Shown: positions 21,649-51,918 of the stretch, piece by piece
Numbering within the stretch: the stretch's first letter is position 1
How the letters are laid out: the number at the start of each line of letters is the position of its first letter
Assembly (NCBI GenBank): GCA_034419075.1
Contig: DAOULR010000001.1
Span: 1,766-65,765 of the forward strand
Direction: 5' to 3'
DNA length: 64,000 nt
Source: Dehalococcoidales bacterium
Lineage (GTDB): Bacteria > Chloroflexota > Dehalococcoidia > Dehalococcoidales > BS750m-G39
Notes under the pieces: generated by a model
The model's input: only the letters and a program-made list of their open reading frames with translations
What the model was told of the DNA's origin: nothing
Database searches by the model: none
Program-made: the position numbers and the translations under genes

Positions 21649-21653
21649 TCTTT

Positions 21654-34731: not shown

Positions 34732-34747
34732 CTTGGAGGCAACTAAT

Positions 34748-35668: not shown

Positions 35669-35731
35669 TATTGATTCAGGTTTCAAGAATTACTAGCCCA
35701 GTTAGTAAATGGTTTGGAAAAGGGAGGGCCC

Positions 35732-36319
35732 ATGCTGTTCGAGGAAGTTAACCAGCTCTTAGAGCCAGGATATCTGCCCATGGAAACCGGCTATTGCCGC
35801 TTACCGAACGGGCAGTCGTTTGCCGCCACTCTGGTCAGGATGCCCGGCTGCCAGGCGAAAATGCTCGACTGGTGGTTTGGCTCTTTTCTTAGAGATACTG
35901 AGACCTATAAGCAATGGGACCCAAAAGCTCACCTGCGTTTTGAGTGGGACGATAAATGGAGTCCGGGACACTATATTGGTGCCAGCCACTATGGTGAGGA
36001 ACACTTGGCCGGAGAGGTGCTTAAGTTCGTAGTCAAATTTGATGACCCTGCCCTATTCTTCGACACCTCCAGGTTTAAGGAAGCCAGGGTGGGGGCTGTC
36101 GTCTGTGGCCAGGGCTTTCTCCCTGACGGAACGCCGGACGGGCGTTTTGTTCATCTTGCCCGCGATACCGACTATGGCTGCGAAGTACGCAGCCGATTCT
36201 GGATTTATAGTGGCGACGAGAAGATAGCCCGGGGGCATATGGAGCATTGTCTTTCTGAAATGGGTTATATGGCTGACTTGCTACCTAGTGTCTATCCCAA
36301 GGAGCCTGGTGACCAATAG
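35732..36319 (+). CDS. DAPG hydrolase PhlG-like protein
   Basis: METGYCRLPNG, MPGCQAKMLDWWF, WDPKAH, RSRFW, HCLSEM (HxxxE) motifs typical of PhlG-family domains. Confidence 0.8.
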   Translation: MLFEEVNQLLEPGYLPMETGYCRLPNGQSFAATLVRMPGCQAKMLDWWFGSFLRDTETYKQWDPKAHLRFEWDDKWSPGHYIGASHYGEEHLAGEVLKFVVKFDDPALFFDTSRFKEARVGAVVCGQGFLPDGTPDGRFVHLARDTDYGCEVRSRFWIYSGDEKIARGHMEHCLSEMGYMADLLPSVYPKEPGDQ

Positions 36320-36356
36320 TTATCAGTGGGCCGGTAACGGCAACGCGCTTACCGTT

Positions 36357-37136
36357 TTACTTTCCCAATACTATGCCCGCGGGGTCTATTTCCTCACGCA
36401 GTATTCTTAAATGCTCCTCTGAAGGCTCGGGACTGGTGGCAACCTTGTCAGGAATGATAATTTCAAAGCCGCTGTTCTCTTTTACCTCGGCTATACTCAC
36501 GCCCGGATGTAACGAGATTAATTTAAGCCTTTTTGTTTCCTCATCGAAGCCATAGATGCCCAGTTGGGTGATAACCCGATACGGTCCTGTGCCGGCCGGT
36601 AATCCGACCCTTTCCCTACCCCCCGGCCCGTCTAAGTAGCCGGGGGTGGTTAAGAAATCGACCTTGCTGACGAAGGTTCTCTTTGACTGATTGGTAATAG
36701 TGGTTATGAGCCTTTGCGAGAAAGAGGCTACATCATTAGCCCCGCCACTACCGGGCAAGCGAACTTTGGGCAAGTCATGGTCACCTATAACGGTAGTGTT
36801 GATATTTCCGTACCTGTCCATCTGGGCGGCGCCTAGGAATCCAAAATCTATATATCCCGCTTGGGAAATTGACATAACATCGTGCATGCTGGAGGCAGCT
36901 ATAGCTCGATGAAAGGTTCTGGATTCGCCAACCGATATGGCTAGTTCAGGTAGCTGAGGTCCTACCCCACCAGCCTCAAACACGATAAGTAAATTAGGGG
37001 CATGCGTTTTCTGCGCCAGTGTGGCGGCTATTATGGGAAGCCCCGTGCCCACAAAAACAGATTTTTTGTCCTCTAAGACACTGGCGCCACTGAATGCCAG
37101 GAATTCCCTTAGATTATATCTATCTTCTTTTATCAT
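36357..37136 (-). CDS. family I CoA-transferase beta subunit (glutaconate CoA-transferase B-like)
   Basis: VFVGTGLP, LIVFEAG, GAAQMDRYGNIN, RLPGSGGAND motifs. Confidence 0.9.
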   Translation of the reverse strand: MIKEDRYNLREFLAFSGASVLEDKKSVFVGTGLPIIAATLAQKTHAPNLLIVFEAGGVGPQLPELAISVGESRTFHRAIAASSMHDVMSISQAGYIDFGFLGAAQMDRYGNINTTVIGDHDLPKVRLPGSGGANDVASFSQRLITTITNQSKRTFVSKVDFLTTPGYLDGPGGRERVGLPAGTGPYRVITQLGIYGFDEETKRLKLISLHPGVSIAEVKENSGFEIIIPDKVATSPEPSEEHLRILREEIDPAGIVLGK

Positions 37137-37173
37137 ACATCTAAATCCCCGCTTTCCTAAGTAAGGCCGAAAC

Positions 37174-38184
37174 CTATTTCCGCCATGGAGCCCTCATTGG
37201 TTCTTTAAGGAATTCCCTCCTCTTCAAGTAGTCCAAGCGCTCTATGCCACCGCAAAGCTCCAGATAGTCCTCAAAGTTATTAACGCTAAAAACATATTTC
37301 TGCAGGTACTCATCCACACCCGGTGCGGTTTTACTCAGCTTGAGCCATTCCGCTATGTGGTCTTCGTCATAGTAATACATCCCGGGCATCTCAGTGGGGT
37401 GTGAGCCATACGGAGCTTCAACAACGGCATCGACGACAAAGAAGGGGATGCTTGTTTTCCAGGGTTCTCCCCGGATAGATTCATTATCTATTATTTCCTC
37501 GGTAGTAATTATTAGTCTCCGAGCGCACCTGGAGAGTTCAAAGTCTTCCACCAAGATGCCATCTATTTGAGCATTACCATATACGTCACAACGGTGGACA
37601 TGGATGAAGGCCACATCAGGATAAGCCGCCGGAATCAGATTGATTGGCTTGCCCGAGAAGGGGTCAGTGACTACCTTGCAACTACTATAACTACCGGTAT
37701 CAGTACCAAGCAGGTTACGACTGGGTATAAAGGGAAGCCCCATCATCGCCGCCAGCCACCGCCATTGGTAGCCGGCGTTGCTGGTTTCGGCAACTACCTT
37801 ACATTGGCCACTCTCTACCATCCTCCTCGAAGCCGGAGATAATCCCCTAAGCTCATGGCCGAAGGAATACGCCACCTCTACCTTATTTACACAGCCTGAA
37901 CCTACTAAAAGGTCAAGGTCATGGACGGCGGTTTTACCAGCCATACTCAGATTACGCTTCTTTTGCCTGATTATCTCGTAAATGATAGACATGGACACTC
38001 TTACGTGCCCGAACCCACCACTAGCGATAAAATCTCCATCATGAACAAATTTAGAGACGGTCTCCTGGGCTGACATGGTTTTATCCTTTAGCTCGCGAGA
38101 CTTGTTTTCAATCACCCATCTTCTAGCCTCATCCGGGTCGTGCCAACCCAAAAGTTCTCCTTTGCCTTCTTTTAGTACCTCCAT
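37174..38184 (-). CDS. family I CoA-transferase alpha subunit (glutaconate CoA-transferase A-like)
   Basis: VHDGDFIASGGF, AAMMGLPFIP, PDVAFIHVHRCD.YGNAQI motifs. Confidence 0.9.
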   Translation of the reverse strand: MEVLKEGKGELLGWHDPDEARRWVIENKSRELKDKTMSAQETVSKFVHDGDFIASGGFGHVRVSMSIIYEIIRQKKRNLSMAGKTAVHDLDLLVGSGCVNKVEVAYSFGHELRGLSPASRRMVESGQCKVVAETSNAGYQWRWLAAMMGLPFIPSRNLLGTDTGSYSSCKVVTDPFSGKPINLIPAAYPDVAFIHVHRCDVYGNAQIDGILVEDFELSRCARRLIITTEEIIDNESIRGEPWKTSIPFFVVDAVVEAPYGSHPTEMPGMYYYDEDHIAEWLKLSKTAPGVDEYLQKYVFSVNNFEDYLELCGGIERLDYLKRREFLKEPMRAPWRK

Positions 38185-38256
38185 CTTCGCCTCCTCAATT
38201 TAAATAACCTAACTCGAGCTAATTATAGCCGGCTCTCCTATCAAAAATACATTTTA

Positions 38257-40407
38257 TCACGCCTTATAGATCCTGCAGAGCAGCGCCCGGAATGTCACCG
38301 AGCCCATGGCCGGGTCGTAGGGAGGTTCGTTGCTGGTGAGGACGTTGGCGTTGCTTTTCCATAAACCATGGTCCGGGGCTGGGTCTTCAGGGTACCACCA
38401 TGATGCTTGGGCCGCCACCACTCTGGGGTCCAACCCGGCAAAAAGTTCAGCTAGTTGCTTTATTCTACCCCTCGGCGTTTCAATCCACACCCATTCTCCA
38501 TCCTTAATCCCCAGCTTTTCCGCAGTCTCAGGATGGATTTGCACTATTGGGTATGGCTGTCTTTCTCGCAACCGGGGTAGCTGACGGTATTGGGAATGAA
38601 AATAGTAGGGCGAGCGAGCGCCCGTAGAAAGGATAAAGGGATATTCCTGAGCCAGTTCTGGAGTTGAATAAGGGCTTTCGTTGGGTTCAATATAATAGGG
38701 CAGGGGGTCATAACCGAGCTTTTCCATTTTAGTCGAGTAGAGTTCCACTTTTCCTGTATTGGTGGCAAAGCCGCCCCCCTTTCTCCAGTAGTCTGTCTTA
38801 TATTTATAGTAGGGCTGCTCTTTGCCCATCTTGGCCAGAAATCCCAACCGACTAAATTCCTTCCAGGTTATATTGGCTTTTCTCAGTTCGTAATCAAGCA
38901 TCTCTTCAACGCTGTCAAACCAGTATTCGGGGGCAAGCCTTTTGCCAAGCTCATTGAATATCTTGTTGTCTGGCCAGGCTTCTCCCGGAGGGTCTACCAC
39001 TTTGTTTATGGCACCAATAATGAAACGAGGGTGCATATCATGAATGTCATCTGTCTCCAGCCAGTGGGCCGCCGGCAGGACTATGTCAGCATACTCGGCA
39101 GTGGGGGACATATAAAGGTCGACTACGGATAAAAACTCTACGTTTAATAGGGCCTCTTTTACTTCTTTAGTATTGGGGTAAGCCACCAGCGGGTTAGTTC
39201 CCTGGAGATGCATGACCCGGATGGGGGCAGTCCCTTCCTTCAACTGCTTAAACATGGTATGCATATGAGCCATGGCGAGAGAACCCAGTAGCTTAAATCT
39301 ATCGGCTCCGATGGCGGTCTCCTTCGGTGCCGGCACCTCCCTGGCGAAATCTTCCAGCGGACCGGTATCGGGGGGCACCCAGTTAATCATGCTGCCCGGT
39401 CTTTCTATATTTCCCGTAACCGCCATAAGGCAGACTATCGCCCTCAGGGTCTGTACGGAATTATTGTTGGCCTCCAGGGCTTCTCCCATCTGGATGCAGG
39501 CGGGCTTAACCGTAGCCAGTATCCTGGCGGCCTTTACGATTTTTTCCTGCGGGACCCAGCTTATTTCGGACACTCTTGCCGGAGGATAGTCTTGAACCCT
39601 TTGCTTAAGCTTGTCGAAGCCATACGTCCAGTTCTCGACGAACTCCCGGTCATACAGCTCCTCGTTGATTATCACGTTGAGCATGCCGAGGGCCAGGGCG
39701 GCATCGGTGCCGGGCCTGACCTGCAGCCATAGGTCGGCTCTGCCGGCCAGGCGGGTAGCCCTGGGGTCGATGAGTATCAAATGCTCCGCCTTCTTCAGCG
39801 AATTAAGAAACCAGACCGCCATCTCGCCGTCGGCGTTAGTGATTTCCAGTTGTTTTCCCCAGGAAATCTGAGTCTTGGGGTACTCCCCACCCCAGCCGTG
39901 GTAATCACAATACAGTCTGCCCCCGACCATCATGCCGAAAACGGCTAGCTTCGGGCCATAGCAGAAATCGGTGGGCGCGCCCATGTTTGGCGTGCCGATA
40001 GAGCGGGCAAACCTGAAGGTGTATCTATTGTAGCCCCGGCCGGTTCCCTGGCAGATAGCTACGGAACTGGCTCCTGATTCTTCAATACTGCCCTTTATTT
40101 TACCGGCAACTGTCTCTAAGGCTTCTTCCCAACTGATTCTTTGCCACTGACATCCTCCCCTCTCCCCTTTTCTCTTCATGGGATATAGAATCCGGTTGGG
40201 GTTGTAAACATCCTGAATGCTGGCCAGACCCTTGGCGCACATCGTTCCTCTGGTTGCTGAATCCGGGTTGCCTTCAACACGGGTTATCCTGCCGTTCTCC
40301 ACAGTAGCCAGTACCCCGCAGCCGCCGTGGCAGCTCTTGCAGGTAGTCTTGATAACGGCTTTATCAGTGCGTCCTTCCATACCGGCTGTCTCTATGACCC
40401 CAGTCAA
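38257..40407 (-). CDS. molybdopterin (bis-PGD) oxidoreductase, acetylene-hydratase-like clade
   Basis: CKSCHGGC...CAKG 4Fe-4S motif, RILYPMKR, PGTDAALALG, DIVLPAA, HSQYRQ motifs. No Tat signal. Confidence 0.88.
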   Translation of the reverse strand: MTGVIETAGMEGRTDKAVIKTTCKSCHGGCGVLATVENGRITRVEGNPDSATRGTMCAKGLASIQDVYNPNRILYPMKRKGERGGCQWQRISWEEALETVAGKIKGSIEESGASSVAICQGTGRGYNRYTFRFARSIGTPNMGAPTDFCYGPKLAVFGMMVGGRLYCDYHGWGGEYPKTQISWGKQLEITNADGEMAVWFLNSLKKAEHLILIDPRATRLAGRADLWLQVRPGTDAALALGMLNVIINEELYDREFVENWTYGFDKLKQRVQDYPPARVSEISWVPQEKIVKAARILATVKPACIQMGEALEANNNSVQTLRAIVCLMAVTGNIERPGSMINWVPPDTGPLEDFAREVPAPKETAIGADRFKLLGSLAMAHMHTMFKQLKEGTAPIRVMHLQGTNPLVAYPNTKEVKEALLNVEFLSVVDLYMSPTAEYADIVLPAAHWLETDDIHDMHPRFIIGAINKVVDPPGEAWPDNKIFNELGKRLAPEYWFDSVEEMLDYELRKANITWKEFSRLGFLAKMGKEQPYYKYKTDYWRKGGGFATNTGKVELYSTKMEKLGYDPLPYYIEPNESPYSTPELAQEYPFILSTGARSPYYFHSQYRQLPRLRERQPYPIVQIHPETAEKLGIKDGEWVWIETPRGRIKQLAELFAGLDPRVVAAQASWWYPEDPAPDHGLWKSNANVLTSNEPPYDPAMGSVTFRALLCRIYKA

Positions 40408-40417
40408 CAGGCGCTAT

Positions 40418-41335
40418 TTACTTCTTTTCTTTGTGCTTGCTTTTTTCCGTTTTCTTGCTCTCTTCAGCAAGCTTCTTGGCGCGTTCCTCATCGTGGAAAA
40501 GGACCTCTTTGCCGGCAAACCATTCTCTGGAGCTGATATTGGCATGCTCCACATTCTTGCAGAAGTCTCCGAACATTTCCGTGCCGAAGGTCATGTCAAG
40601 GTCGTCAACAATGCGCTGCTTCCAAGGTCTTTTAACAACCTGAGCGGTCAGGCGTCTGACGGTGCGGTGCCGGGCCATGATGAAATCGGCGATTTCATAC
40701 GCTCTGGGGATCAACCTGTCGTATGGAACCACTTCGTTTACCAAGCCATATTCCAGACACTGCTGTGCGGTGAGCTTCTGACTCATATACATGGCGTACG
40801 CGGCTCTCCGGATGCCCATAAGCTCAATTAAGCAGCTGTGGATGCCGTCCCCGGGGACGATATCATACAGGAAGTGTGGGTCAGCAATTACGGCATCTTC
40901 GGCCATAATGCAGATATCGCACATCAGCGCCAGTTCGGCGTGTCCGCCGGTCCCGTTCAGCACGCCAATCGTCGGAACCTCTACGTCCTGAATCATGGCG
41001 ATAAGCATCCGGCGACCGTCAATGAACATATGCTCATACCTGGTGTATTCCGGTTCTGTTATCTCCGGCTTCCAGCTTTCGGGCTCGAATTCGATAATCC
41101 AGTCTTTTCCTGTCCCGGTAAAGATTACCAACTCAATGTCAGAGTCGCTGCCTACAGTACGCCACATCTGGCCTATCGCCCGGTGCAGTTCCATACTCCA
41201 TAACTGCGGCCCTCCGTTTGTATGCATCCTGACCAGAAGTACGCCGTCATCGCGCTTTTCCATAATGAAGTGCTCTTTGAACATCTCCTTATAGTCTTCG
41301 TAATTTGGCCACTTCACGAACTTTGTCCGAGGCAT
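40418..41335 (-). CDS. crotonase-fold protein, 6-oxocamphor hydrolase-like beta-diketone hydrolase
   Basis: VLLVRMHTNGG, HAELALMCD, DPHF..IVPGDG, TEMF motifs. Confidence 0.8.
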   Translation of the reverse strand: MPRTKFVKWPNYEDYKEMFKEHFIMEKRDDGVLLVRMHTNGGPQLWSMELHRAIGQMWRTVGSDSDIELVIFTGTGKDWIIEFEPESWKPEITEPEYTRYEHMFIDGRRMLIAMIQDVEVPTIGVLNGTGGHAELALMCDICIMAEDAVIADPHFLYDIVPGDGIHSCLIELMGIRRAAYAMYMSQKLTAQQCLEYGLVNEVVPYDRLIPRAYEIADFIMARHRTVRRLTAQVVKRPWKQRIVDDLDMTFGTEMFGDFCKNVEHANISSREWFAGKEVLFHDEERAKKLAEESKKTEKSKHKEKK

Positions 41336-41441
41336 AATGATTCCTCCTTTATTTTAGGATTTATTTTGGCTCTTGATGGCTCGCTTCTTAAAACCAAGCA
41401 AAGACTTCCCGGTTTAAAAGCTCATACCGCACCGGTTGGAC

Positions 41442-42437
41442 CTATTTTATCTCGTCTTCCTCTTGGCCGCCGTTAATGCGGGGACGGATGACCTTACCCT
41501 TCCTCTCGGCTTTGCGAACCAGGTCGGCTTCTTCGTGAGCCCAGTGCCAGTAATTAACCTCGTGGGGCGAATGCTCGGTGGCGGTGACGTACATCTCGCT
41601 GGCAAAGGAGCCACGCACCTCGTTTGCGATATCTTCCTTCCAGGGCTTGCGGAGTATCTGGGTAGTAATACGCCGGGTTACTCTAGAACCGGTGCACATA
41701 ATGAGCTCAGCGATTTCCCAGGCGCGTTTGTAGCAGGATTCGAGGTCAGGGCAGATCTCATTGACCATACCGAGAGCAAGGGCCTTTCGGGCCGTGATGA
41801 TCTCTCCGGTTAGCTCAGCATAAGCGAATCTCTTGCGGCCCATGAGCTCGCGCCAGGGGATCTGAATGCCGTCACCGGGAACCATGTTGACGCGGAAATG
41901 CATATCCGTCGTCCAGGCATCCTCAGTGCAGAGGGTGATATCGCTTAACAGTACCAGGTCCGTGTGGAAGGCGGCGCCGTTCCAAATCCCGATGGTGGGA
42001 ACCTCAACGTCAAAAATCTGACCTTCTATGTCATTGGTGCCGTCATAGTACTGATATTCATACATCCTCCAGGCCACTTCCGGGTTCGAGGCAAACTCGG
42101 TAGCCGGTTCCCATTTTTGAGTCTTTTCATTGAACTTGCCGATGCCTTTAGTGAAATCCTTGCCCATGCCGCCCAGGATTATGACCTCATTGTCCGGGTC
42201 CCGGCCTGCCCAGTCGAAAAAGTAGTGCAGGGCTTGGTGGTGGGAAGCCCCCCACTGCATGCTGTCGCCGTTGGAATGAAGCCGCGCTTCGAGGATGCCA
42301 TTCTTCCGCTTCATCAGGAGGCAATGCTTGAGCTTTTCCGAGTACTCTTCAAAAGGCACATGGGGAATAGTCCCTATTTCCTCATGCGGCATCTCCTTGC
42401 GCTTTCCAGCATCGGATTCATAATTGGCTCTAATCAT
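41442..42437 (-). CDS. crotonase-fold protein, 6-oxocamphor hydrolase-like beta-diketone hydrolase (paralog)
   Basis: PFEEYSEK, LHSNGDS.QW..SHH, HTDLVLLSD, DMHF..MVPGDG, SEMY motifs. Confidence 0.8.
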   Translation of the reverse strand: MIRANYESDAGKRKEMPHEEIGTIPHVPFEEYSEKLKHCLLMKRKNGILEARLHSNGDSMQWGASHHQALHYFFDWAGRDPDNEVIILGGMGKDFTKGIGKFNEKTQKWEPATEFASNPEVAWRMYEYQYYDGTNDIEGQIFDVEVPTIGIWNGAAFHTDLVLLSDITLCTEDAWTTDMHFRVNMVPGDGIQIPWRELMGRKRFAYAELTGEIITARKALALGMVNEICPDLESCYKRAWEIAELIMCTGSRVTRRITTQILRKPWKEDIANEVRGSFASEMYVTATEHSPHEVNYWHWAHEEADLVRKAERKGKVIRPRINGGQEEDEIK

Positions 42438-42665
42438 TATTTTCTCCCTCCTTTTACTAACTTCACAGGAATTTTTGACCTGCCCTCACTAATGATACCA
42501 CTCTTTAAATAATTATTGACGAAATACACTCTCCTCCTGCAATGTGTCAAGCAACCACAATCCTTCTCAAATCAAAGCTCCGGCGATGCGCTGGGGTTAA
42601 TAGCCAAGCCAAATGAGCTTCCCTAAAGCAACCCAGTACACTGATGCCTACACTACTTTTCTATT

Positions 42666-43967
42666 TTACTGCATTGTGCCGGGTAACCACAGTGCGATTT
42701 GCGGGAGAGCGATGAGGACAGCTATACAAATAGCCTCCGCTATGAGGAACGGGACTATGCTCCGGAATATCTTGCCAACTTTGACATTAATGGCTCCAGA
42801 GAGCAAAAAGGCATCCATCCCCACCGGCGGGGTAACCAGCCCCATTTCTACAAGTATCACCACTATAATCCCAAACCATATCGGGTCAAAGCCGAGGGTA
42901 TGAACAACCAAGGGGAATATAACGGGGATGCTAAGGATAACCGCCGAGATAATGTCCAGGAACATACCCAGAATAATGTAAAGGACAACTACACCCAATA
43001 AAATGAGATAGCGCGAGACTTCCAGCCCGGCAATAAGCTCGCCCATCGCCGTGGTAAGCTGGCTGACGGCAAGGAACTTCATCAGGATATAAGCCCCGAT
43101 GATAAGCAGCATGATCATGGTGGTGGTCTGTGCGGTTTCTAGAATAGCGCTGCGGAACTTCTTGAAGTTAAGACGCCGCATGGAGACAGTGATAAAAAGA
43201 GCGCCGAAGGCACCAACGGCTCCCCCCTCGGTAGGAGTGAAGACCCCCATATAGATACCCCCCAATACCACTATGAACAGGAGCACAGTAGGCCAAGTGA
43301 GTTTCAGCGACACTATCTTCTTCATCCAGCTGGTCTTCGGCCCCGCCGGCCCCGCCTTGGGGTTACGTAGCGTGATAAGAAAGATGGCGAGTGCAAACAA
43401 ACCAGCCAGAAATATTCCCGGGATAAAACCGGCCATATAGAGCTTGCTGATAGAAGTCTCGGTTAGAATGCCGTATATGATGAGCACCACGCTGGGGGGG
43501 ATAAGGAAAGCCAGGCCGCCGGCGCAGGCAATAGAACCAAGCGCCAGATTATCGTCATAATTGTATTTCCTCATCGACGGCAGGGCTACCTTACCCATGG
43601 TGACCAGAGCCGGGGAACTGACGCCGGTGATAGCGGCGAAAGCGGCACAGGCGATAACGGTAGCCATCGCCAGCCCTCCCCGCAACTGTCCCACCCATCT
43701 ATAGGCGGTTTCGTAGAGGTCGGCACCAACCCCCGATTCGAAGAGAACCACCCCCATGAAGATATAGAGTGGGACCGTCGTCATCATGTAGGTAGCCATA
43801 GTGGTGAAGGGAATCAGCGATATTACCCCGCAGGCGGGGTCCCAGCCCCTGATGATGACATAGCCGAAAAAGCCGACCAGGGCCATAGCCGCGCCAACCC
43901 ACATCCGGGCAAAGATAAAGCCCACCAGCACAACCAGCCCGATAGCGCCAATAAGTTCTGGACTCAC
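42666..43967 (-). CDS. dctM: TRAP transporter large permease
   Basis: 433-aa polytopic protein; TVPLYIFMG, LIPPS, TPTEGG, TPPVG motifs. Confidence 0.93.
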   Translation of the reverse strand: MSPELIGAIGLVVLVGFIFARMWVGAAMALVGFFGYVIIRGWDPACGVISLIPFTTMATYMMTTVPLYIFMGVVLFESGVGADLYETAYRWVGQLRGGLAMATVIACAAFAAITGVSSPALVTMGKVALPSMRKYNYDDNLALGSIACAGGLAFLIPPSVVLIIYGILTETSISKLYMAGFIPGIFLAGLFALAIFLITLRNPKAGPAGPKTSWMKKIVSLKLTWPTVLLFIVVLGGIYMGVFTPTEGGAVGAFGALFITVSMRRLNFKKFRSAILETAQTTTMIMLLIIGAYILMKFLAVSQLTTAMGELIAGLEVSRYLILLGVVVLYIILGMFLDIISAVILSIPVIFPLVVHTLGFDPIWFGIIVVILVEMGLVTPPVGMDAFLLSGAINVKVGKIFRSIVPFLIAEAICIAVLIALPQIALWLPGTMQ

Positions 43968-44431
43968 TTCTTAAACGCCTCGGATACTCTCTTAACCAGC
44001 AGCGCTACTATTGATATGGAAAACATAGCCCAGCCCACTGCCATTACCCAATAAAAGGGGGCCTGTGGCACGCTAAGGAGGGAACTGACGTCACTAGAAT
44101 CTATAGCTGCCGGGAAGCTTTGCCAGGTTATGATAGCGAACATGCCCAGGGCAATAAGTAGCGTGATATTGTCAACAATCACCTGAACCCGTCGCGGAAA
44201 TCGATCCATTATAAAGTCTACCTTGATGTGTTTTTCTTCTAGCGCCGCCCATGCCAGCGCTGGAAAAACGATGATTATCATCATTAAACAGGCGAGTTCT
44301 GGGGTACCTAGTATCGGCGAGTTAAAAAAATAACGGCCACAGACATTGGCTGTGACCAGTAGCATCATTACGATTATTACTCCCGCTGATACATAACCCA
44401 TCCACCGGCTTAGCTTGTACAGTATCGTCAT
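43964..44431 (-). CDS. dctQ: TRAP transporter small permease
   Basis: Four TM segments; RYFFNSPI, HIKVDF motifs. Confidence 0.92.
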   Translation of the reverse strand: MTILYKLSRWMGYVSAGVIIVMMLLVTANVCGRYFFNSPILGTPELACLMMIIIVFPALAWAALEEKHIKVDFIMDRFPRRVQVIVDNITLLIALGMFAIITWQSFPAAIDSSDVSSLLSVPQAPFYWVMAVGWAMFSISIVALLVKRVSEAFKK

Positions 44432-44592
44432 TATCTGATCTCCCGACTAGCTCAGGCTAACGATAAACTATCCGCTTTAATAACAATCACCAGCAAGCTG
44501 GAGGGATGAAATGCGGAATAACTTGCCACCAATCCAGGCAATGCGCACCACCCCCCAGCTTGCTAAAGGAGAGACCATGAAGAATATTCTAT

Positions 44593-45633
44593 TTATTCGC
44601 TTAATTCGGCTACTAGCTCCAGAGTCCGGTCATATAGCTCTTGCCCGGGTAGCCCGGCAGCTTCGCAGTCCGCTATCCACTTATCGTGGATTGGCGCCTT
44701 AACCAGGTCACGCCAGACATCTAACTGCTCAGGAGTAAGATAGGTGATGGTATGCCCTTCGACCACAGCCATAGCTTCAACCATGCATATGTCATCCCAG
44801 CTTGTCTGGAACTCCAGCCACTTTGGACCTGAGTCTAAGAGTACCTGCTGAAGGCTATTGGGAAGGCCGTTAAAGAAATCCTTGTTCACAATGACGAACA
44901 TCGGGGTCATGTTAACGCCACTACCGCCGAACACAGTGTGACACTTCAGCACATCCAGCGCCCCGAAGATCCAGCAGACCGGGAAGTGATTGACAACCCC
45001 ATCAACAACTCCTGTCATCAGAGACGGGGTCATCTCCGGTATCGGTATGTCTGACGCTGTGGCGCCAGCTTCCGCTAGTGCCGCAACCGTCATCGCCTCA
45101 GTACTCATGATCCTCAGACCCTGAGCGTCTTCAGGAGTTACCACCACTTTGTCAATGGTGTGGAGGTGCGTCGGGGGCATCATCATAAAACTGAGGATCA
45201 TCAAATTATCATCCCATTCGTCTTCCATCTCGGAAAACTCGTCCATCAGGGTCTGGTAGGCAGCCTCGATGTGCTGTTCGGGCCAGCCCATGAAGGGCAG
45301 TGACATGACAAGGCCCAGCTGGAAACCCTGCTCGCTGTCAATAACGTAGTGGGCAATGTCACAAACGCCGTCTATCGTACCCTGATAAGCCTCGGCGTCA
45401 TTGGCGAGCAAAGCTCCACCATGGATAATATTTATATCAAGTAAGCCCTCACTTTGCTCCTCGACCCATGCTCCCCAATCATCCCAGGCCGCGGCCACGG
45501 TTGACTCCGCCGGATTGTGGTCGTTAACTGTAACCGTGATTGGCCCGGTGATCTCTTCTTCGCAGGCAGTGGCGCACAAAGGCAATGCAATTAACGCCAG
45601 AATTAACAAACCAAAAATTAGAGTCCTTTTCAT
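44593..45633 (-). CDS. dctP: TRAP substrate-binding lipoprotein
   Basis: Lipobox-like ATAC, SLMTGVVDG, VNKDFFNGLP..LQQ motifs; upstream of dctQ-dctM. Confidence 0.88.
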   Translation of the reverse strand: MKRTLIFGLLILALIALPLCATACEEEITGPITVTVNDHNPAESTVAAAWDDWGAWVEEQSEGLLDINIIHGGALLANDAEAYQGTIDGVCDIAHYVIDSEQGFQLGLVMSLPFMGWPEQHIEAAYQTLMDEFSEMEDEWDDNLMILSFMMMPPTHLHTIDKVVVTPEDAQGLRIMSTEAMTVAALAEAGATASDIPIPEMTPSLMTGVVDGVVNHFPVCWIFGALDVLKCHTVFGGSGVNMTPMFVIVNKDFFNGLPNSLQQVLLDSGPKWLEFQTSWDDICMVEAMAVVEGHTITYLTPEQLDVWRDLVKAPIHDKWIADCEAAGLPGQELYDRTLELVAELSE

Positions 45634-45754
45634 CTTTTGCCTCCTAACTATTTAGTGACTTAAAGATAATCCTTTTTTCCTACGATATTTCACCCCCTTC
45701 TCGCTTTAGTGGTGGGAGAGCCGAATTCTCTCCACATATTTTCCTGCCAGCTTG

Positions 45755-45832
45755 TTGCGGTAAGTCTAACAGATATTATATAATATTATAAAAATTGTCA
45801 AGGGGTTGATAATCCATAGCCGTATCAATTTT
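45755..45832 (-). repeat. 78-bp inverted repeat copy 1: promoter/operator module facing the TRAP operon
   Basis: Reverse complement of 49321-49398 with 4 mismatches. Contains TTGACA-17-TAATAT on the minus strand and TTGATA-N11-TATCAA. Confidence 0.92.
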
Positions 45833-45978
45833 TTGTACAAAGTATTCTAGGTACAACTTTAGAGATTGTCAATATCTATATCGGCAATATATAAGGGTGC
45901 CTGCATTCTGCTTGTTGAATGTTGGCTAGAATCTATATTACAATAATAGCCCCAATTAGTTTTGAAAGAGTGTAACAG

Positions 45979-47427
45979 ATGACAGGAATAGGGATCATTG
46001 CTTACGGTGTTCATATACCCCGATATCGGTTAAGCCGTAAGACTATCTCCGAAGCTATGGGCTGGCTGAGCCCTGGAGCCTTACCGGGGGAAAAGGCGGT
46101 GGCTAATTATGATGAGGACAGCCTTACTATGGCTGCCACCGCCGGTTTAGATTGCCTCAAGGAGGTCAACCGGGCCAGGGTTGATAGCCTCTGCTTCGCC
46201 TCCACCACCTTTCCCTATAAGGAGAGAGAGAGCGCCGCTATAATCGCTACAGCCCTTGACCTCAGCCCCAACATACGTACGGCTGACATGGCTAATTCCC
46301 TCAAGGCCGGGACCGAAGCTATCCTCTACGCCGGTGACTCCGTTAAAGCCAAAGGGGCCGGTAATATCTTGGTCTGCGGCGCCGATTACCGTCTGGGCAA
46401 GCCAGGTAGTCCCCAGGAGACAGTCTTCGGGGATGGGGCTGCCGCTTTTCTTCTTGGCAGCAACGGTGTGATTGCCAGCTTGGAGGGCTGGTATTCCACC
46501 TCGTACGATTTTTCGGATTACCGCCGGTCGGAAGGTGATAAATTCGTGCGAGCTGCCGAAGATAGATTCATACGGCAAGCAGGTTACACCAAGTTCATCC
46601 CTGAGGCTATTTCGGGCTTATTAAAGAAGTATAAGCTGGGAACCAAGGACTTTGCCAAAGTAGCTTACCCCTGCCTTAACTTTAGAGAACATGCCGCTAT
46701 AGGGGAAAGGCTGGGCTTTCAGCCGGAACAAATTCAGGAACCTTTGTTTGGCGTGATAGGCGAAACAGGGGTGGCTTCGCCGCTGATTTTGCTGGTGGCT
46801 ATGCTGGAGGAGGCTAAGGCCGGTGATAACATCCTCCTCGCCAGCTATGGAAACGGCGCCGAGGCTCTATTCTTCAAGGTGACCGAAGAGATAGCCAAGC
46901 TAAAGGATAGAGAAAGGCTGAAGAAGTCCCTGGCCGATAGGAGAGAACTAGCCAGCTACGAAAAGTATCTAGCCTTCCGCGGCATAATTCCGGTAGATGT
47001 GGGGGGAGGTGAGGGGGAAGTTGCCCCCACCAAGTTGCCGCTGACATGGAGGGAACGGAAAGCAATCCTGTCGCTTTATGGCTCCAAATGTAAACGCTGC
47101 GGCACTCCCCAGTACCCCCCACAAAGAATCTGCGTCAACCCTGACTGTGGGGCTGTTGATGAGATGGAGGATTACCGCTTCGCCGATAAGAAGGGGGTCG
47201 TTTTCAGTTATACTGCCGATAACGTGGCTTCCTCCATCAGCCCTCCGCTATTATACGGCATGATAGACTTTGAAGGCGGGGGCAGGTTTGTCTTTGAGCT
47301 TGCCGATTGCGATAAGGACTCAATCAGGATAGGTATGCCGGTGGAAATGAGCCTGCGCCGGAAATATATAGATGAGCTACGAGGTATCCATGGCTATTTC
47401 TGGAAGGCGATACCAATAAGAGAGTGA
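45979..47427 (+). CDS. fusion of HMG-CoA-synthase-like domain (no catalytic Cys) and DUF35 Zn-ribbon/OB-fold domain
   Basis: HIPRYRL, DEDSLTMA, NSLKAGT (in place of ACKAG), SYGNGAEA; C-terminal CKRCG..YPPQRIC..PDC and GMPVEM. Confidence 0.85.
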   Translation: MTGIGIIAYGVHIPRYRLSRKTISEAMGWLSPGALPGEKAVANYDEDSLTMAATAGLDCLKEVNRARVDSLCFASTTFPYKERESAAIIATALDLSPNIRTADMANSLKAGTEAILYAGDSVKAKGAGNILVCGADYRLGKPGSPQETVFGDGAAAFLLGSNGVIASLEGWYSTSYDFSDYRRSEGDKFVRAAEDRFIRQAGYTKFIPEAISGLLKKYKLGTKDFAKVAYPCLNFREHAAIGERLGFQPEQIQEPLFGVIGETGVASPLILLVAMLEEAKAGDNILLASYGNGAEALFFKVTEEIAKLKDRERLKKSLADRRELASYEKYLAFRGIIPVDVGGGEGEVAPTKLPLTWRERKAILSLYGSKCKRCGTPQYPPQRICVNPDCGAVDEMEDYRFADKKGVVFSYTADNVASSISPPLLYGMIDFEGGGRFVFELADCDKDSIRIGMPVEMSLRRKYIDELRGIHGYFWKAIPIRE

Positions 47428-47446
47428 TAAGTAAGAGGGAGCAGAA

Positions 47447-48658
47447 ATGCCAGAGGGGATAAAGGACAAGGTTGCCATCATAGGGATGGGGTGTACTAAA
47501 TTTGGCGAGCTTTGGGATAAGAGCGCCGAGGATTTGATGGTTGAAGCCTTTGAGGAAGCCCTTGAAGATGCTGGGATAGAGAAGAAAGATATTCAGGCAG
47601 CCTGGCAGGGCAACCAGTTCACCGAGGTCAATATAGGACACAGTGCCATCCCCTTGGCTACTACCCTTAAGCTACCCTTCATCCCGGTAACACGCGTCGA
47701 AAACCTGTGCGCCAGTGGTACGGAGGCCCTTAGAGCCGCCTGTTACGCTGTTGCCTCAGGCGCCTGCGATATCGCTCTGGCTCTTGGGGTGGAAAAGATT
47801 AAGGATCTGGGCTTCGGGGGTCTTCCCAGGGCTAACGAGGACATAGTGTCCCTCGGCACTAGGGGGAGAGTCATCTTCCCCAACTGGGTTAACCCCAACC
47901 CGGGAATGTTTGCCATGATGGCTAACAGGTATTTCGAGCGGTATGGTCTCAGCATCGAAGAGGGCAAGACAACACTGGCTAAGGTATCCGTCAAAAGCCA
48001 CCACAACGGCTCTATGAACCCCAAGGCCCACCTCCGCCGAGAAATCACCGTGGAAGATGTGCTAAAGGCCCCCATCATCGCCTGGCCTCTAGGCCTGTTC
48101 GACGCCTGTGGTGTAAGTGACGGGTCAGCGGCGGCCATCTTGGTGCGAGCCGATATGGCCAAGAATTTTAGGCCCGACCCGGTTTACATCAAGGCCCTCC
48201 AGGTTGCCGCTGAGTCTGGGGAAAGCCTGTTATACACCGATTATGATTATACTCATGTGGAGACAACCCGCCGCGCCGCTGCCAAGGCTTACCAGGAAGC
48301 CGGCGTTAAGAATCCGCGGGAAGAAATCAGCATGATAGAAGCCCATGACTGTTTCTCCATAACCGAGATGGTTACCTACGAAGACCTGATGATATCTCCC
48401 CCGGGGAAGGCCAAGGAGGATATTGACTCTGGTTTCTTTGAGCTTGATGGCAAGATTCCCTGCCAGCCCGATGGCGGTCTAAAGTGCTTTGGTCATCCCA
48501 TCGGTGCCTCAGGACTCAGGATGCTATATGAAATGTACAAACAGCTTCAAGGCAAAGCGGGGGAAAGACAGGTAAAGAATCCCCGGTTGGGACTCACCCA
48601 CAACCTGGGCGGCCAGCCACCCCTAAGTGTATGCAGTGTCTGTGTCGTAGGTCTTTAG
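47447..48658 (+). CDS. thiolase, SCP2/archaeal-type acetyl-CoA acetyltransferase-like
   Basis: VENLCASG (Cys), EAHDCF, DGGLKCFGHPIGASG motifs. Confidence 0.92.
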   Translation: MPEGIKDKVAIIGMGCTKFGELWDKSAEDLMVEAFEEALEDAGIEKKDIQAAWQGNQFTEVNIGHSAIPLATTLKLPFIPVTRVENLCASGTEALRAACYAVASGACDIALALGVEKIKDLGFGGLPRANEDIVSLGTRGRVIFPNWVNPNPGMFAMMANRYFERYGLSIEEGKTTLAKVSVKSHHNGSMNPKAHLRREITVEDVLKAPIIAWPLGLFDACGVSDGSAAAILVRADMAKNFRPDPVYIKALQVAAESGESLLYTDYDYTHVETTRRAAAKAYQEAGVKNPREEISMIEAHDCFSITEMVTYEDLMISPPGKAKEDIDSGFFELDGKIPCQPDGGLKCFGHPIGASGLRMLYEMYKQLQGKAGERQVKNPRLGLTHNLGGQPPLSVCSVCVVGL

Positions 48659-48695
48659 GTCCTTAAGAGAAATGAGGTAAGGGCGAAGGGAGACT

Positions 48696-48716
48696 TGAAG
48701 TGAAGCTCAGCGGTAA
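48696..48716 (+). repeat. duplicated 5' end of the downstream SDR gene
   Basis: TGAAGTGAAGCTCAGCGGTAA versus TGAAATGAAGCTCAGCGGTAA at 49594-49614 (20/21 identical). Confidence 0.8.
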
Positions 48717-48752
48717 TGAGGGCGTGCCTACCGAACCTCGGCATGTTGGCTA

Positions 48753-49265
48753 TCACTCCTCACTTTTGAAATCAACAAACTGATTAACTAGGTGCTTTCT
48801 AATCTTCCTTAAAGAAGCTGTTAACATCTGCACTTCCTCTTCACCCATTGTAGGCATAGCCGAATTCATAACCTCTAGAGTGTCTGGTAGGCTTGTTCTA
48901 ATTAATTCTAATCCCCTTTTGGTGACGATGATCCTTTTAGTCCTACGGTCTTGGCCGACTAATTCCCTTTTCACCAAACCGTCTCTCTCGAGGACATCAA
49001 TGATCTGGGTAATAGTCTGTTTGGACCGGAGTAACATCCTGCTTAAATCTGTCGGCTTCATTACCCCGCCGTGTATTATCAACGTATGCATGATATCAAA
49101 TCGGCTCCGGTTCTGGCCGATTGTCCTTGCTTTCGCAGTTATATACTTATCCAAGAGCCAGCCAGCATTGAGAAGTTGAACAACTAGTCTAAATCTCAAA
49201 TTATCACCTATCGCTCTAATATCCTCAGCTAAAGATGCCAAGTCGCCGTTGAATTTATCAGTCAT
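48753..49265 (-). CDS. MarR-family transcriptional regulator
   Basis: TITQIIDVLERDGLVKR..GQDRRTKRIIVTKRG winged-helix signature. An AGGAG RBS supports ATG 49265. Confidence 0.92.
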   Translation of the reverse strand: MTDKFNGDLASLAEDIRAIGDNLRFRLVVQLLNAGWLLDKYITAKARTIGQNRSRFDIMHTLIIHGGVMKPTDLSRMLLRSKQTITQIIDVLERDGLVKRELVGQDRRTKRIIVTKRGLELIRTSLPDTLEVMNSAMPTMGEEEVQMLTASLRKIRKHLVNQFVDFKSEE

Positions 49266-49320
49266 TGTATGTCTCCTTAGATTAACTGATTCCGTACTAT
49301 TCAATACACAATTTTAAAGC

Positions 49321-51869: not shown

Positions 51870-51918
51870 TTCGGCCCGTGACTTGTTTGGTTATTTTTTG
51901 ATTGGAGGAGGAAAGCCA

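Follow-up and report, generated by a model that had tools for sequence, protein, structure and literature searches.

The P. fluorescens complex PfACAT/HMGS-DUF35 was characterised in 2026 as a thiolase complex that cleaves acetoacetyl-CoA (Nat Commun 2026;17:2196, PMC12960953). It is the only enzyme of this architecture that has been assayed, acetoacetyl-CoA was the only substrate tested, and no acetoacetyl-CoA was obtained from acetyl-CoA (PMC12960953). The HMGS of P. fluorescens lacks the E-C-H-N residues and the ACAT has the Cys, HDxF and GHx motifs; loss of HDxF divides the C-acyltransferases PhlC and MucB from true thiolases (PMC12960953). Altogether, 1,001 of the 1,030 bacterial loci with HMGS, ACAT and DUF35 are without secondary-metabolism partners, and the bacterial complex with its dead HMGS has been proposed to be an "evolutionary intermediate" (PMC12960953).

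We analysed a stretch of 64,000 nucleotides from a Dehalococcoidales bacterium (here called the window). It contains two adjacent genes of this kind, separated by 19 nt:

45979-47427, plus strand: fused HMGS-like/DUF35 protein, 482 aa
47447-48658, plus strand: SCP2-type thiolase, 403 aa (NCBIfam PRK06157)

We regard it as probable (roughly 70%) that the pair is a bacterial ACAT/HMGS-DUF35 complex which cleaves 3-oxoacyl-CoA in a beta-oxidation-like route.

The HMGS-like domain has lost its catalytic residues and the thiolase has kept its own

The fused protein consists of an HMGS-like domain with a thiolase fold (aa 1-338), a low-confidence linker (aa 340-359), a zinc ribbon with the four cysteines C371, C374, C385 and C390, and an OB fold (aa 402-479). 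Pfam identifies zf-ChsH2 and OB_ChsH2_C (DUF35) at aa 364-459, which bears out the fusion to a DUF35 Zn-ribbon/OB domain described in the sequence-only reading. The NCBIfam model of archaeal-type HMG-CoA synthase (PRK04262) is matched with an E of 1e-67 and 228.6 bits, slightly under its cutoff of 244 bits. In the PDB sequence search the best match is the PhlA homologue 9skh_A (3e-41); archaeal HMGS 6esq_I (5e-36), PhlA 5m3k_A (2e-34) and the DUF35 protein 6esq_E (1e-15) are found as well. An AlphaFold2 model was obtained with a pLDDT of 80.7 and a pTM of 0.85. Its top fold matches in Foldseek are PhlA homologues (9skh, 5mg5), which are placed first, archaeal HMGS 6et9_I (TM 0.87, rmsd 2.4 A) and MucA.

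Leu108, which is part of N-S-L-K-A-G, aligns with the catalytic Cys114 of 6esq_I, as had been read from the sequence. In the same alignment the entire E-C-H-N set is gone: E82, C114, H238 and N270 are replaced by T, L, P and E, and E82 and C114 were found in none of 73 relatives. An alignment of 27 sequences showed that the zinc-ribbon cysteines are invariant and that the residues surrounding the dead site (S107, K109, G111 and T112) are highly conserved, perhaps because the HMGS-like pocket still binds a ligand.

The thiolase scores 614 bits against PRK06157, over the cutoff of 403. Cys88 (C-A-S), His300-Asp-Cys-Phe (HDxF) and Gly-His350-Pro are all present, confirming that its Cys and His are intact, and Cys, HDxF and GH are retained in 69 of 71 family members. 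The best PDB match is the archaeal acetoacetyl-CoA thiolase 6esq_A (8e-62); BbsAB 7pxp_C (1e-44) and Ltp2 6ok1_A (1.5e-21) are more distant, and PhlC reaches just about 1e-17 to 3e-20. A thiolase next to a dead HMGS-like/DUF35 fusion supports the earlier proposal of a two-chain complex, which the two proteins presumably form.

The gene pair is surrounded by genes for CoA-ester metabolism

The following genes are located downstream of the pair:

48753-49304, minus strand: MarR-family regulator (Pfam MarR_2), between the thiolase and SDR genes
49598-50359, plus strand: SDR, 253 aa (Pfam adh_short)
50376-51869, plus strand: AbfD/HpaB-family flavoprotein, 497 aa (PDB 1u8v 7e-78, 6vjr 1e-68)
51883-52779, plus strand: 3-hydroxybutyryl-CoA dehydrogenase (Hbd), 298 aa (NCBIfam PRK07819, 369 bits, cutoff 319)

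In the close relatives L084-L086 the pair, SDR, the AbfD-like gene and Hbd form a single operon, in which SDR comes straight after the thiolase. Hbd also shares an operon with the pair in L001, and the AbfD-like gene adjoins the pair in L001 (81% identical) and L025. The MarR-family regulator is particular to the window locus; it was not found at this position in L084-L086, and the 80 related loci contain no homologue of it. SDR may be a 3-hydroxyacyl-CoA dehydrogenase or a 3-oxoacyl-CoA reductase, and the AbfD-like flavoprotein is a candidate enoyl-CoA isomerase or (de)hydratase. In the latter His292 of 1u8v is retained; C99, C103 and C299, the [4Fe-4S] ligands of AbfD, are replaced by S, F and Y. 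Thus, a simple route from 4-hydroxybutyrate to acetyl-CoA should not be assumed.

An operon on the minus strand (36357-45633) is transcribed divergently from the pair (Pfam assignments unless stated):

42666-45633, minus strand: TRAP transporter DctPQM
41442-42437, minus strand: crotonase
40418-41335, minus strand: crotonase
38257-40407, minus strand: acetylene-hydratase-like Mo/W enzyme (PDB 2e7z, 3e-109)
37174-38184, minus strand: CoA-transferase subunit A
36357-37136, minus strand: CoA-transferase subunit B

From this operon the syntenic L084 retains only the CoA-transferase and one crotonase. Among the Pfam-scanned ORFs the window also encodes ETF and several acyl-CoA dehydrogenases (ACADs).

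The HMGS-DUF35 fusion family comprises at least 636 clusters (50% identity, E<=1e-30). The 80 related loci belong to Dehalococcoidia, Bacillota, Desulfobacterota, Syntrophales and others, in line with the earlier remark that such fusions occur in other anaerobes. In 54 of these loci a thiolase gene follows the fused gene immediately, and in a further 11 one lies within 3.5 kb; 12 of the others, where no thiolase was seen, are too short to hold one. Of the 63 related loci that span 6 kb or more, 47 have a gene for ACAD, SDR, MaoC, crotonase, acyl-CoA ligase or CoA-transferase. Frequent neighbours are acyl-CoA dehydrogenases, acyl-CoA ligases, CoA-transferases and also MaoC genes. A homologue of the window SDR is found in the flanks of 27 of the 80 loci, and in some relatives HMGS-DUF35 is fused to SDR+SCP2, to two SCP2 domains or to SDR.

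The PhlG-like gene is part of a different operon

The PhlG-like gene is the last gene of an operon that is a transcription unit separate from the pair:

31026-33125, plus strand: OYE ene-reductase
33165-33671, plus strand: SnoaL_4
33691-34731, plus strand: Zn-ADH
34733-35668, plus strand: FMN_red
35732-36319, plus strand: zinc C-C hydrolase of the PhlG/phloretin hydrolase family, 195 aa (Pfam PF18089, E 2e-42)

Its true start is the ATG at 35732, which matches homologues of 195 aa. The sequence-only reading had noted a PhlG-like gene with an HxxxE motif 10 kb from the pair; family, motif and distance (9.66 kb, with the convergent minus-strand operon in between) hold, and the reading is to be corrected in that the gene encodes a short form, is nearer to phloretin hydrolase and belongs to another operon. 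HxxxE is H172-C-L-S-E176, which together with H67 and E90 gives all four zinc ligands of PhlG, and these are conserved. In the PDB search phloretin hydrolase 5xe5 (9e-30) is a better match for the protein than PhlG 3hwp (4e-16), and its 57.6 bits against the NCBIfam PhlG model are far under the cutoff of 600. With both structures it shares the Bet v1-like zinc C-C hydrolase domain PF18089 and the four ligands. It differs from them in size (195 aa compared with 280-300), lacking about 60 N-terminal residues and an insertion of about 20 residues that precedes the HxxxE helix. It is a member of a distinct short subfamily from anaerobes.

The same OYE-SnoaL-ADH-PhlG-like operon is present in one other locus (L087), and FMN_red and SnoaL_4 neighbour PhlG-like genes in two more (L082 and L083). 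The operon possibly serves polyphenols. The cluster contains two OYE-type reductases (BaiCD-like) and SnoaL proteins, which for the thiolase pair hint at a more unusual substrate, cyclic or unsaturated.

The proposed link to Phl enzymes predicted that the pair and PhlG-like genes occur together, and this was seen in neither direction: the 836 kb flanking 80 related pairs contain no PhlG-like gene, and the 559 kb of 80 PhlG-like loci (gene plus flanks) contain no HMGS-DUF35 gene. In the syntenic L084 cluster, where the fused protein is 81% identical, an acyl-CoA dehydrogenase stands in the position of FMN_red and the PhlG-like gene. No link between the pair and the PhlG-like gene was detected, and we do not count this gene as part of the thiolase system.

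Alternative functions

The sequence-only reading had suggested that the complex may remove the acyl groups of acylphenols or diketones, as a PhlACB-like Friedel-Crafts C-acyltransferase that works in reverse and is tied to the PhlG-like hydrolase. It fits that the HMGS-like domain is slightly nearer to a PhlA homologue than to archaeal HMGS, that PhlA homologues rank first in Foldseek, that the tetrad is lost as in PhlA, and that a PhlG-family gene whose product keeps its zinc ligands is found at a distance of 9.7 kb. However, the thiolase retains HDxF, the motif by whose loss PhlC and MucB are defined (PMC12960953). ACAT is also a far closer match for the thiolase than PhlC, no linked case was seen among 80 loci in either direction, the syntenic L084 cluster lacks the PhlG-like gene, the transcription units are separate, and the neighbours are CoA-ester enzymes instead of PKS genes; the Phl reading is not supported, and we consider this function very unlikely. 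Also very unlikely is a retro-aldolase like Ltp2/Sal, in which an aldolase with a thiolase fold sits on DUF35 and cleaves a 3-hydroxyacyl-CoA side chain. In steroid side-chain degradation DUF35 docks thiolase-like aldolases (PMC12329534, PMC11321319), and the BaiCD-like reductases and SnoaL proteins of the cluster would suit such a pathway. Against it, the complete thiolase set is retained, the match to Ltp2 is far behind that to ACAT, and the partner domain of DUF35 is HMGS-like and not a MaoC hydratase.

A complex that forms HMG-CoA for an archaeal-type mevalonate pathway is virtually out of the question. In its favour, the pair resembles the archaeal proteins (HMGS, thiolase and DUF35) overall, and several sources annotate homologues as "hydroxymethylglutaryl-CoA synthase". 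But the archaeal complex no longer forms HMG-CoA when the tetrad is mutated (PMC12960953), the score for the HMGS model is below its cutoff, and no mevalonate-pathway genes were seen in the window ORFs scanned with Pfam. With the whole tetrad replaced here and its E82 and C114 absent from the relatives, an active HMG-CoA synthase is refuted at the sequence level. Condensation in reverse beta-oxidation or ACP-independent fatty-acid synthesis is unlikely. In this model, based on the KT/DUF35/ACR/MaoC assembly of Sulfolobus, a docked SDR (and hydratase) would pull the endergonic Claisen condensation forward. An archaeal thiolase/DUF35 pair that acts in the direction of synthesis binds both a reductase (SDR) and a dehydratase (MaoC) (bioRxiv 10.1101/2024.07.05.601840), and the SDR gene directly after the pair in close relatives, the HMGS-DUF35-SDR fusions and the frequent MaoC genes agree with this. 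The P. fluorescens complex of the same architecture did not condense acetyl-CoA (PMC12960953); since thiolase condensation is endergonic unless coupled, this result leaves the physiological direction unfixed. The frequent acyl-CoA dehydrogenase, acyl-CoA ligase and CoA-transferase neighbours are typical of degradation, the window encodes a TRAP importer, ETF and several ACADs, and no MDR-type enoyl-CoA reductase was found beside the pair.

Proposed function

For the cleavage of 3-oxoacyl-CoA, the SCP2-type thiolase would be the sole catalytic subunit. Cys88 would act as the nucleophile that takes up the acyl group, and His300 (HDxF) and His350 (GHP) might provide the acid/base and oxyanion residues. 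The dead HMGS-like domain with the fused DUF35 zinc ribbon and OB fold would be the structural partner of the thiolase; if the archaeal and Phl/Muc complexes are a guide, it may keep the thiolase soluble and help to build a shared CoA-binding chamber. Most likely, short or medium 3-oxoacyl-CoA would be split using CoA with release of acetyl-CoA, and this thiolysis would be the final step of a beta-oxidation-like route. The putative dehydrogenases of the route adjoin the pair (SDR, 3-hydroxybutyryl-CoA dehydrogenase, acyl-CoA dehydrogenases/ETF), and Hbd would supply the thiolase with its 3-oxoacyl-CoA substrate. The CoA-transferase and crotonase that might serve the same route are transcribed divergently from the pair. 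The place of the pair in an operon of beta-oxidation type, with SDR, AbfD-like and Hbd genes, speaks for a functioning role in catabolism and not for an "evolutionary intermediate".

Comparison with known systems

The archaeal thiolase/HMGS/DUF35 complex (6esq/6et9) has the same three modules, its thiolase also carries Cys, HDxF and GH, and the HMGS-like domain of the window superposes best on 6et9_I. In contrast to the archaeal complex, the HMGS module of the window pair is dead; it therefore yields no HMG-CoA, and nothing pulls the condensation forward. In addition, DUF35 is a chain of its own in archaea and fused in the window.

PhlACB (PpATase, 5M3K/5MG5) and MucABC (SmaATase, 9VBO) likewise combine a dead HMGS-like protein (PhlA/MucA), DUF35 (PhlB/MucC) and a thiolase-like subunit with a catalytic Cys, and the HMGS-like domain of the window resembles PhlA about as much as it resembles archaeal HMGS. 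Unlike the window thiolase, PhlC and MucB are without HDxF and use phenolic or tetramic-acid acceptors. The HMGS-like and DUF35 components are separate in Phl and Muc, and unlike their loci that of the pair has no NRPS or PKS genes nearby; a type III PKS (PhlD) is absent from the Pfam-scanned ORFs, as had been noted before. BbsAB of Geobacter metallireducens (7PXP) shares the combination of an SCP2-type HDxF thiolase with a DUF35 zinc-ribbon/OB partner and works in an anaerobic pathway of CoA-ester degradation. BbsA, however, consists of DUF35 alone, with no HMGS-like domain, and BbsAB acts on benzoylsuccinyl-CoA.

PfACAT/HMGS-DUF35, as far as its published description goes, agrees with the window pair in consisting of two genes, for an HMGS-DUF35 fusion with the tetrad lost and for a thiolase with the catalytic Cys, HDxF and GHx. 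Like the majority class of loci, both lack a PKS or NRPS gene nearby. They differ in the host, which is a pseudomonad in one case and an anaerobe-like member of the Dehalococcoidia (Chloroflexota) in the other. The pair thus belongs to a known and widespread class, first assayed in 2026, which is found here in a Dehalococcoidia-like catabolic cluster.

Organization of the region

Three transcription units adjoin each other in the region around the gene pair, which consists of the HMGS-like/DUF35 fusion and its thiolase, and the PhlG-like gene:

31026-33125 (+), OYE/2,4-dienoyl-CoA-reductase-like Fe-S flavoenzyme, first gene listed for the PhlG-like operon
33165-33671 (+), SnoaL_4 protein, PhlG-like operon
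33691-34731 (+), Zn-ADH, PhlG-like operon
34733-35668 (+), FMN_red-like protein of 311 aa with a Cys-rich C-terminus, PhlG-like operon
35732-36319 (+), PhlG-like gene, closing its operon
36357-38184 (-), CoA-transferase subunits B and A, in an operon convergent with the PhlG-like operon
38257-40407 (-), cytoplasmic Mo/W-bisPGD enzyme, 716 aa, CoA-transferase operon
40418-42437 (-), two crotonases (40418-41335 and 41442-42437), CoA-transferase operon
42666-45633 (-), TRAP transporter, CoA-transferase operon
45979-47427 (+), HMGS-like/DUF35 fusion, divergent from the CoA-transferase/TRAP operon
47447-48658 (+), thiolase, 19 nt 3′ of the fusion gene
between thiolase and SDR (-), MarR gene
49598-50359 (+), SDR
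50376-51869 (+), AbfD/HpaB-family (AbfD-like) protein
51883-52779 (+), 3-hydroxybutyryl-CoA dehydrogenase (Hbd)
following Hbd (+), acyl-CoA dehydrogenase and SnoaL protein

Farther to the right, the window encodes a second OYE-type enzyme, an HMGL-like protein, a nitroreductase, another CoA-transferase, two acyl-CoA dehydrogenases (ACADs) and ETF-alpha; its left end (21 kb) is taken up by a block of ribosomal protein, EF-G, SecY and RpoA genes. The closest named homologues come from Dehalococcoidia/Chloroflexota MAGs. Pfam scans of the larger ORFs in the window revealed no PKS or NRPS genes, and no type III PKS (PhlD) among them, as the sequence-only reading had stated. Scans for promoters and terminators in 35500-49700 yielded no more hits than shuffled sequence did and are thus uninformative.

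The two OYE/FAD Fe-S flavoenzymes (31026-33125, plus strand; 55162-57249, minus strand) are approximately 700 aa long, and a SnoaL_4 protein is encoded near each. They resemble BaiCD and bilirubin reductase with every match below cutoff, and they are likely to act on an enoate or enone that is cyclic or conjugated. A gene at 21944-25516 (+) codes for a 1190-aa protein with papain-like cysteine protease, lectin-like and Ig-like domains; it is located directly 3′ of a tRNA-Leu/Arg/Val cluster (21475-21728) and 5′ of glycosyltransferase genes.

The fused protein has lost the HMGS catalytic residues

Pfam and NCBIfam place the HMGS-like domain and DUF35 (zf-ChsH2 and OB_ChsH2_C) on a single ORF of 482 aa. 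The protein matches the archaeal-type HMGS family PRK04262 with an E-value of 1e-67, scoring 228.6 bits against a cutoff of 244, and reaches 156.8 against a cutoff of 353 for TIGR00748. The HMGS-like part has PDB matches in a PhlA homologue (9skh_A, 3e-41), archaeal HMGS (6esq_I, 5e-36) and PhlA (5m3k_A, 2e-34), and the C-terminus matches archaeal DUF35 (6esq_E, 1e-15). Alignment showed that the catalytic tetrad of 6esq_I, E82/C114/H238/N270, is replaced by T/L/P/E; the 6esq_I sequence was rebuilt from the PDB-match alignment and the tetrad is numbered as in PMC12960953. The position of the catalytic Cys is occupied by Leu108 in N-S-L-K-A-G; the replaced motif and the fusion to DUF35 noticed previously are both real. 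With the catalytic residues gone and the scores below the curated cutoffs, the protein does not qualify as an archaeal-type HMG-CoA synthase.

In the AlphaFold2 model of the single chain (pLDDT 80.7, pTM 0.85), a domain with the thiolase fold is joined to a zinc-ribbon/OB domain through a disordered linker at aa 340-359. The structures closest to the model are PhlA homologues, archaeal HMGS (TM 0.87, rmsd 2.4 Å) and MucA. The fold alone thus assigns the HMGS-like domain neither to the Phl nor to the archaeal side, and it is the thiolase that decides.

The thiolase is intact

The 403-aa thiolase has kept Cys88 (C-A-S), His300-Asp-Cys-Phe (HDxF) and Gly-His350-Pro, so that the intact Cys and His described from the sequence are indeed present. 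It matches archaeal acetoacetyl-CoA thiolase 6esq_A with 8e-62 and BbsB with 1e-44 in the PDB, PhlC with about 1e-17 to 3e-20 (overall score), and NCBIfam PRK06157 with 614 bits, above the cutoff of 403. By score it is much nearer to ACAT and BbsB than to PhlC. In PhlC, acceptor binding and proton relay involve His56, Glu116, Tyr124, Thr132, Asp137, His144 and Trp211.

A 2026 paper sets three groups side by side: the thiolase/HMGS/DUF35 complex of archaea, the Friedel-Crafts acyltransferases PhlACB and MucABC, and a third one, by far the commonest bacterial type with 1,001 of 1,030 loci (PMC12960953). In the assayed member of this third group, from P. fluorescens, the HMGS-DUF35 fusion lacks the E-C-H-N tetrad and the thiolase retains Cys, HDxF and GHx. 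Its complex produces no HMG-CoA, nor does it form acetoacetyl-CoA from acetyl-CoA; it cleaves acetoacetyl-CoA, and an exchange of His for Tyr in HDxF abolishes activity. Loss of HDxF sets PhlC and MucB apart (PMC12960953). The scores of the window thiolase agree with placing the pair in the third group.

The fusion is widespread and conserved beside beta-oxidation genes

The fusion has at least 4,500 matches at E<=1e-10 among the proteins of a 90%-identity collection; of the clusters at 50% identity, at least 636 reach E<=1e-30. Among the best 150 of these at least 636 cluster representatives, almost all are full-length fusions of approximately 470-490 aa; the others are partial sequences or longer multi-domain fusions. 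For 80 loci from Dehalococcoidia, other Chloroflexota, Bacillota, Desulfobacterota, Syntrophales, Planctomycetes, Nitrospirales and Hippea we analyzed the flanks up to 10 kb, with many contigs being short. This sample bears out the earlier statement that such fusions occur in other anaerobes, for instance in Bacillota, Desulfobacterota and Syntrophales. Glu at position 82 and Cys at 114 are each absent from all 73 full-length relatives, and 69 of 71 partner thiolases retain Cys, HDxF and GH. The thiolase gene is located directly 3′ of the fusion in 54 of the 80 loci and at most 3.5 kb away in another 11; the contig ends before any thiolase in 12, and in only three is it missing despite sufficient room.

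Clustering of all ORFs flanking the 80 fusions identified as recurrent neighbors acyl-CoA dehydrogenase (31 loci), SDR (27), acyl-CoA ligase (14), CaiB-type CoA-transferase (13), crotonase (10) and three groups of MaoC hot-dog hydratases (9 loci each). At least one of these is present in 47 of the 63 loci that span 6 kb or more. Three relatives carry the dead HMGS-DUF35 part fused with SDR and SCP2 (P0245, 911 aa), two SCP2 (P0246, 722 aa) or SDR (P0318, 800 aa), an arrangement that recalls the eukaryotic beta-oxidation enzymes MFE-2 and SCPx. Both the neighbors and the SDR/SCP2 fusions fit a functioning thiolase complex of the beta-oxidation type. Fusion of thiolase to HMGS-DUF35 as Rosetta-stone evidence was dismissed, since the long relatives P0245 and P0318 join SDR/SCP2 and not a thiolase. 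The relative P0312 (HMGS-like, ATP-grasp and Molydop_binding) looks like a chimeric gene call.

A sub-clade from Syntrophales/Deltaproteobacteria (L048, L051, L053, L056-L058, L060 and L063) has an SDR gene between the fusion and thiolase genes, often a second SDR upstream and often an ACAD downstream, giving the fixed order (SDR), fusion, SDR, thiolase, ACAD.

Syntenic relatives and the AbfD-like protein

The closest long contigs are L084/L085, whose fused protein is 81% identical, and L086. There, the pair heads a single operon (pair, SDR, AbfD-like, Hbd, SnoaL), crotonase and CoA-transferase are divergently transcribed, and the region has the two OYE-type genes on its flanks. Relative to L084, the window additionally contains MarR, the TRAP transporter, the second crotonase, the Mo/W enzyme and ACAD506, and L084 has an acyl-CoA dehydrogenase in the place of FMN_red and the PhlG-like gene. 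Both window crotonases are unusually long (40418-41335, 305 aa; 41442-42437, 331 aa) and have N-terminal extensions, and one carries a Lys-rich C-terminal tail; L084 and L086 have a counterpart (304 aa) only for the first.

In L001 the genes for AbfD-like protein (81%), fusion, thiolase (79%) and Hbd (64%) are consecutive, and in a Syntrophomonas locus (L025) the AbfD-like gene is likewise directly upstream. Hbd exceeds its NCBIfam cutoff. The AbfD-like protein matches 4-hydroxybutyryl-CoA dehydratase AbfD (1u8v, 7e-78) and has kept His292; the [4Fe-4S] ligands C99, C103 and C299 are replaced by Ser, Phe and Tyr. This cluster-less clade of the AbfD family is conserved beside the pair in L084-L086, L001 and L025. 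A C4 route from 4-hydroxybutyryl-CoA via crotonyl-CoA and acetoacetyl-CoA to acetyl-CoA was considered, prompted by this conserved AbfD homologue beside the pair, and is weakened by the lack of all three cluster Cys, so that we do not claim it. The AbfD-like protein may isomerize or (de)hydrate another enoyl-CoA in an FAD-dependent reaction.

The PhlG-like gene is an accessory of the window genome

The PhlG-like ORF contains PF18089 (Pfam, 2e-42). The ORF really begins with the ATG at 35732 and encodes 195 aa, the length of its homologues. Residues H67, E90, H172 and E176 align with H129, E160, H270 and E274 of PhlG, which we take to be the zinc ligands (the numbering follows He et al., 2010, and agrees with the 3hwp alignment), and are at least 90% conserved in the subfamily; the HxxxE motif reported earlier (H172, E176) is real. 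PhlG itself has approximately 294 aa when full-length, and the match to its family NF047887 reaches 57.6 bits against a cutoff of 600 (profile positions 66-233), below equivalog-level similarity; phloretin hydrolase is nearer. The short subfamily (approximately 195 aa) is found in Deltaproteobacteria/Thermodesulfobacteriota and Chloroflexota MAGs.

The sequence-only reading had considered a Phl link, as unproven, between this gene and the pair, which is located approximately 10 kb away. No statistical linkage emerged in either direction (0 of 80 loci each, flanks up to 10 kb): 836 kb flanking 80 pairs contained no PhlG-like match (E<1e-3), and 559 kb at 80 PhlG-like metagenome loci contained no HMGS-DUF35 match and a single unrelated thiolase 9 kb away. 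Since the syntenic L084 cluster does without the gene, it is an accessory of the window genome rather than part of the conserved unit and, whatever its role, is not tied to the thiolase complex.

Its own relatives have other company. L087 carries a 91% identical PhlG-like protein with the OYE-SnoaL-ADH operon (partners 82-88% identical), a trio that L084 shares; FMN_red and SnoaL_4 accompany the gene in L082 and L083. In L081 (5708-11400) it follows a Fer4_11/NrfD/Mo-oxidoreductase set and precedes a protein with a bacterial chalcone-isomerase N-domain. In L166 (398-5174) a 76% identical, acetylene-hydratase-like copy of the window Mo/W enzyme heads an operon that continues with Fer4_11 and Pyr_redox_2 flavoprotein genes and ends with the PhlG-like gene. 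Wider neighbors include LivK-type ABC transporters, aldehyde:ferredoxin oxidoreductase, Amidohydro_2 and isochorismatase-like genes. Gut bacteria degrade flavonoids with chalcone isomerase, enoate reductase and phloretin hydrolase; by analogy, it is a reasonable guess that the PhlG-like protein helps to break down acylated or chalcone-type polyphenols under anaerobic conditions, and a link of PhlG-like genes with Mo enzymes in such metabolism is possible. This short subfamily of zinc C-C hydrolases in anaerobes, found with ene-reductases, SnoaL proteins, Mo enzymes and decarboxylase-like genes, is thus a separate lead, possibly to anaerobic polyphenol breakdown.

The Mo/W enzyme matches acetylene hydratase best in the PDB (2e7z, 3e-109, full length). 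Its FeS motif, C-K-S-C-H-G-G-C, has His (C-x-x-C-H) at the site of the essential Asp13 of acetylene hydratase. Because of this His, and because the gene is not in the syntenic L084 cluster, we rejected acetylene hydratase as an assignment.

Function of the pair

We consider it probable (approximately 0.7) that the pair is a thiolase that would cleave 3-oxoacyl-CoA produced by the adjacent dehydrogenases, with the dead HMGS-DUF35 chain as its obligatory structural partner. That the two proteins form a complex is something we infer, as are the reaction direction and the substrate. Throughout the family the HMGS is dead, the thiolase is intact (69 of 71) and the gene company is that of beta-oxidation, which argues for a working catabolic complex of anaerobes.

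An SDR adjoins the pair and SDR fusions exist, as would suit a condensing complex resembling the Sulfolobus thiolase/DUF35/SDR/MaoC assembly; the degradative neighbors and the P. fluorescens data speak against condensation, which we regard as unlikely. The sequence-only reading had proposed a two-chain acyltransferase/thiolase complex that may strip acyl groups from acylphenols or diketones. Its thiolase complex stands as the probable reading; the Phl-type acyltransferase does not, since HDxF is retained and linkage with PhlG-like genes is lacking in flanks of up to 10 kb, and we give it a very small chance despite the resemblance of the parts to PhlACB. An aldolase of the Ltp2/Sal type, against which the complete set of thiolase residues speaks, is about as improbable, and the loss of the tetrad leaves practically no room for an active HMGS.

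The conserved gene order and the fusions suggest that the cleaving thiolase serves in beta-oxidation and is no evolutionary leftover. We argue that the fusion family is more than a step on the way to acyltransferases that make antibiotics. A wider proposal is tentative: the pair might be the dedicated thiolase of an undescribed MFE-2/SCPx-like beta-oxidation system of anaerobes, not an 'evolutionary intermediate'. The other components of this system would be SDR, MaoC hydratases, SCP2 domains and the AbfD homologue that lacks the cluster, joined in the window by ene-reductases of the OYE type and proteins resembling SnoaL. The HMGS pocket, though inactive, might then have been retained to bind or gate bulky, branched or cyclic acyl-CoA, and the substrate here might be an imported carboxylate activated by the divergent CoA-transferase.

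The practical value is the correct annotation of HMGS-DUF35 fusions. Thousands are labeled 'hydroxymethylglutaryl-CoA synthase' or 'OB-fold protein' in genomes of Chloroflexota, Desulfobacterota, Syntrophales and Bacillota; the former label would falsely imply a mevalonate pathway or, here, a Phl-like acyltransferase.

Comparison with known systems

The pair belongs to a recently described kind that is very common in anaerobes; our literature searches found no other characterized anaerobe member of the fused family. Like PhlACB and MucABC, the window encodes a dead HMGS-like part, DUF35 and a Cys-bearing thiolase-like part. The differences are that HMGS-like and DUF35 parts are fused here and separate there, that the window thiolase retains the conserved H300-D-C-F, the loss of which characterizes PhlC and MucB, and that the PhlD or NRPS-PKS biosynthetic setting has no match in the window. 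Judged on the published criteria, the pair has every sequence feature of the PfACAT type (PMC12960953): HMGS and DUF35 in one polypeptide, an HMGS part devoid of the E-C-H-N tetrad, an adjacent thiolase with CxS, HDxF and GHx, and surroundings free of PKS/NRPS genes among the Pfam-scanned larger ORFs.
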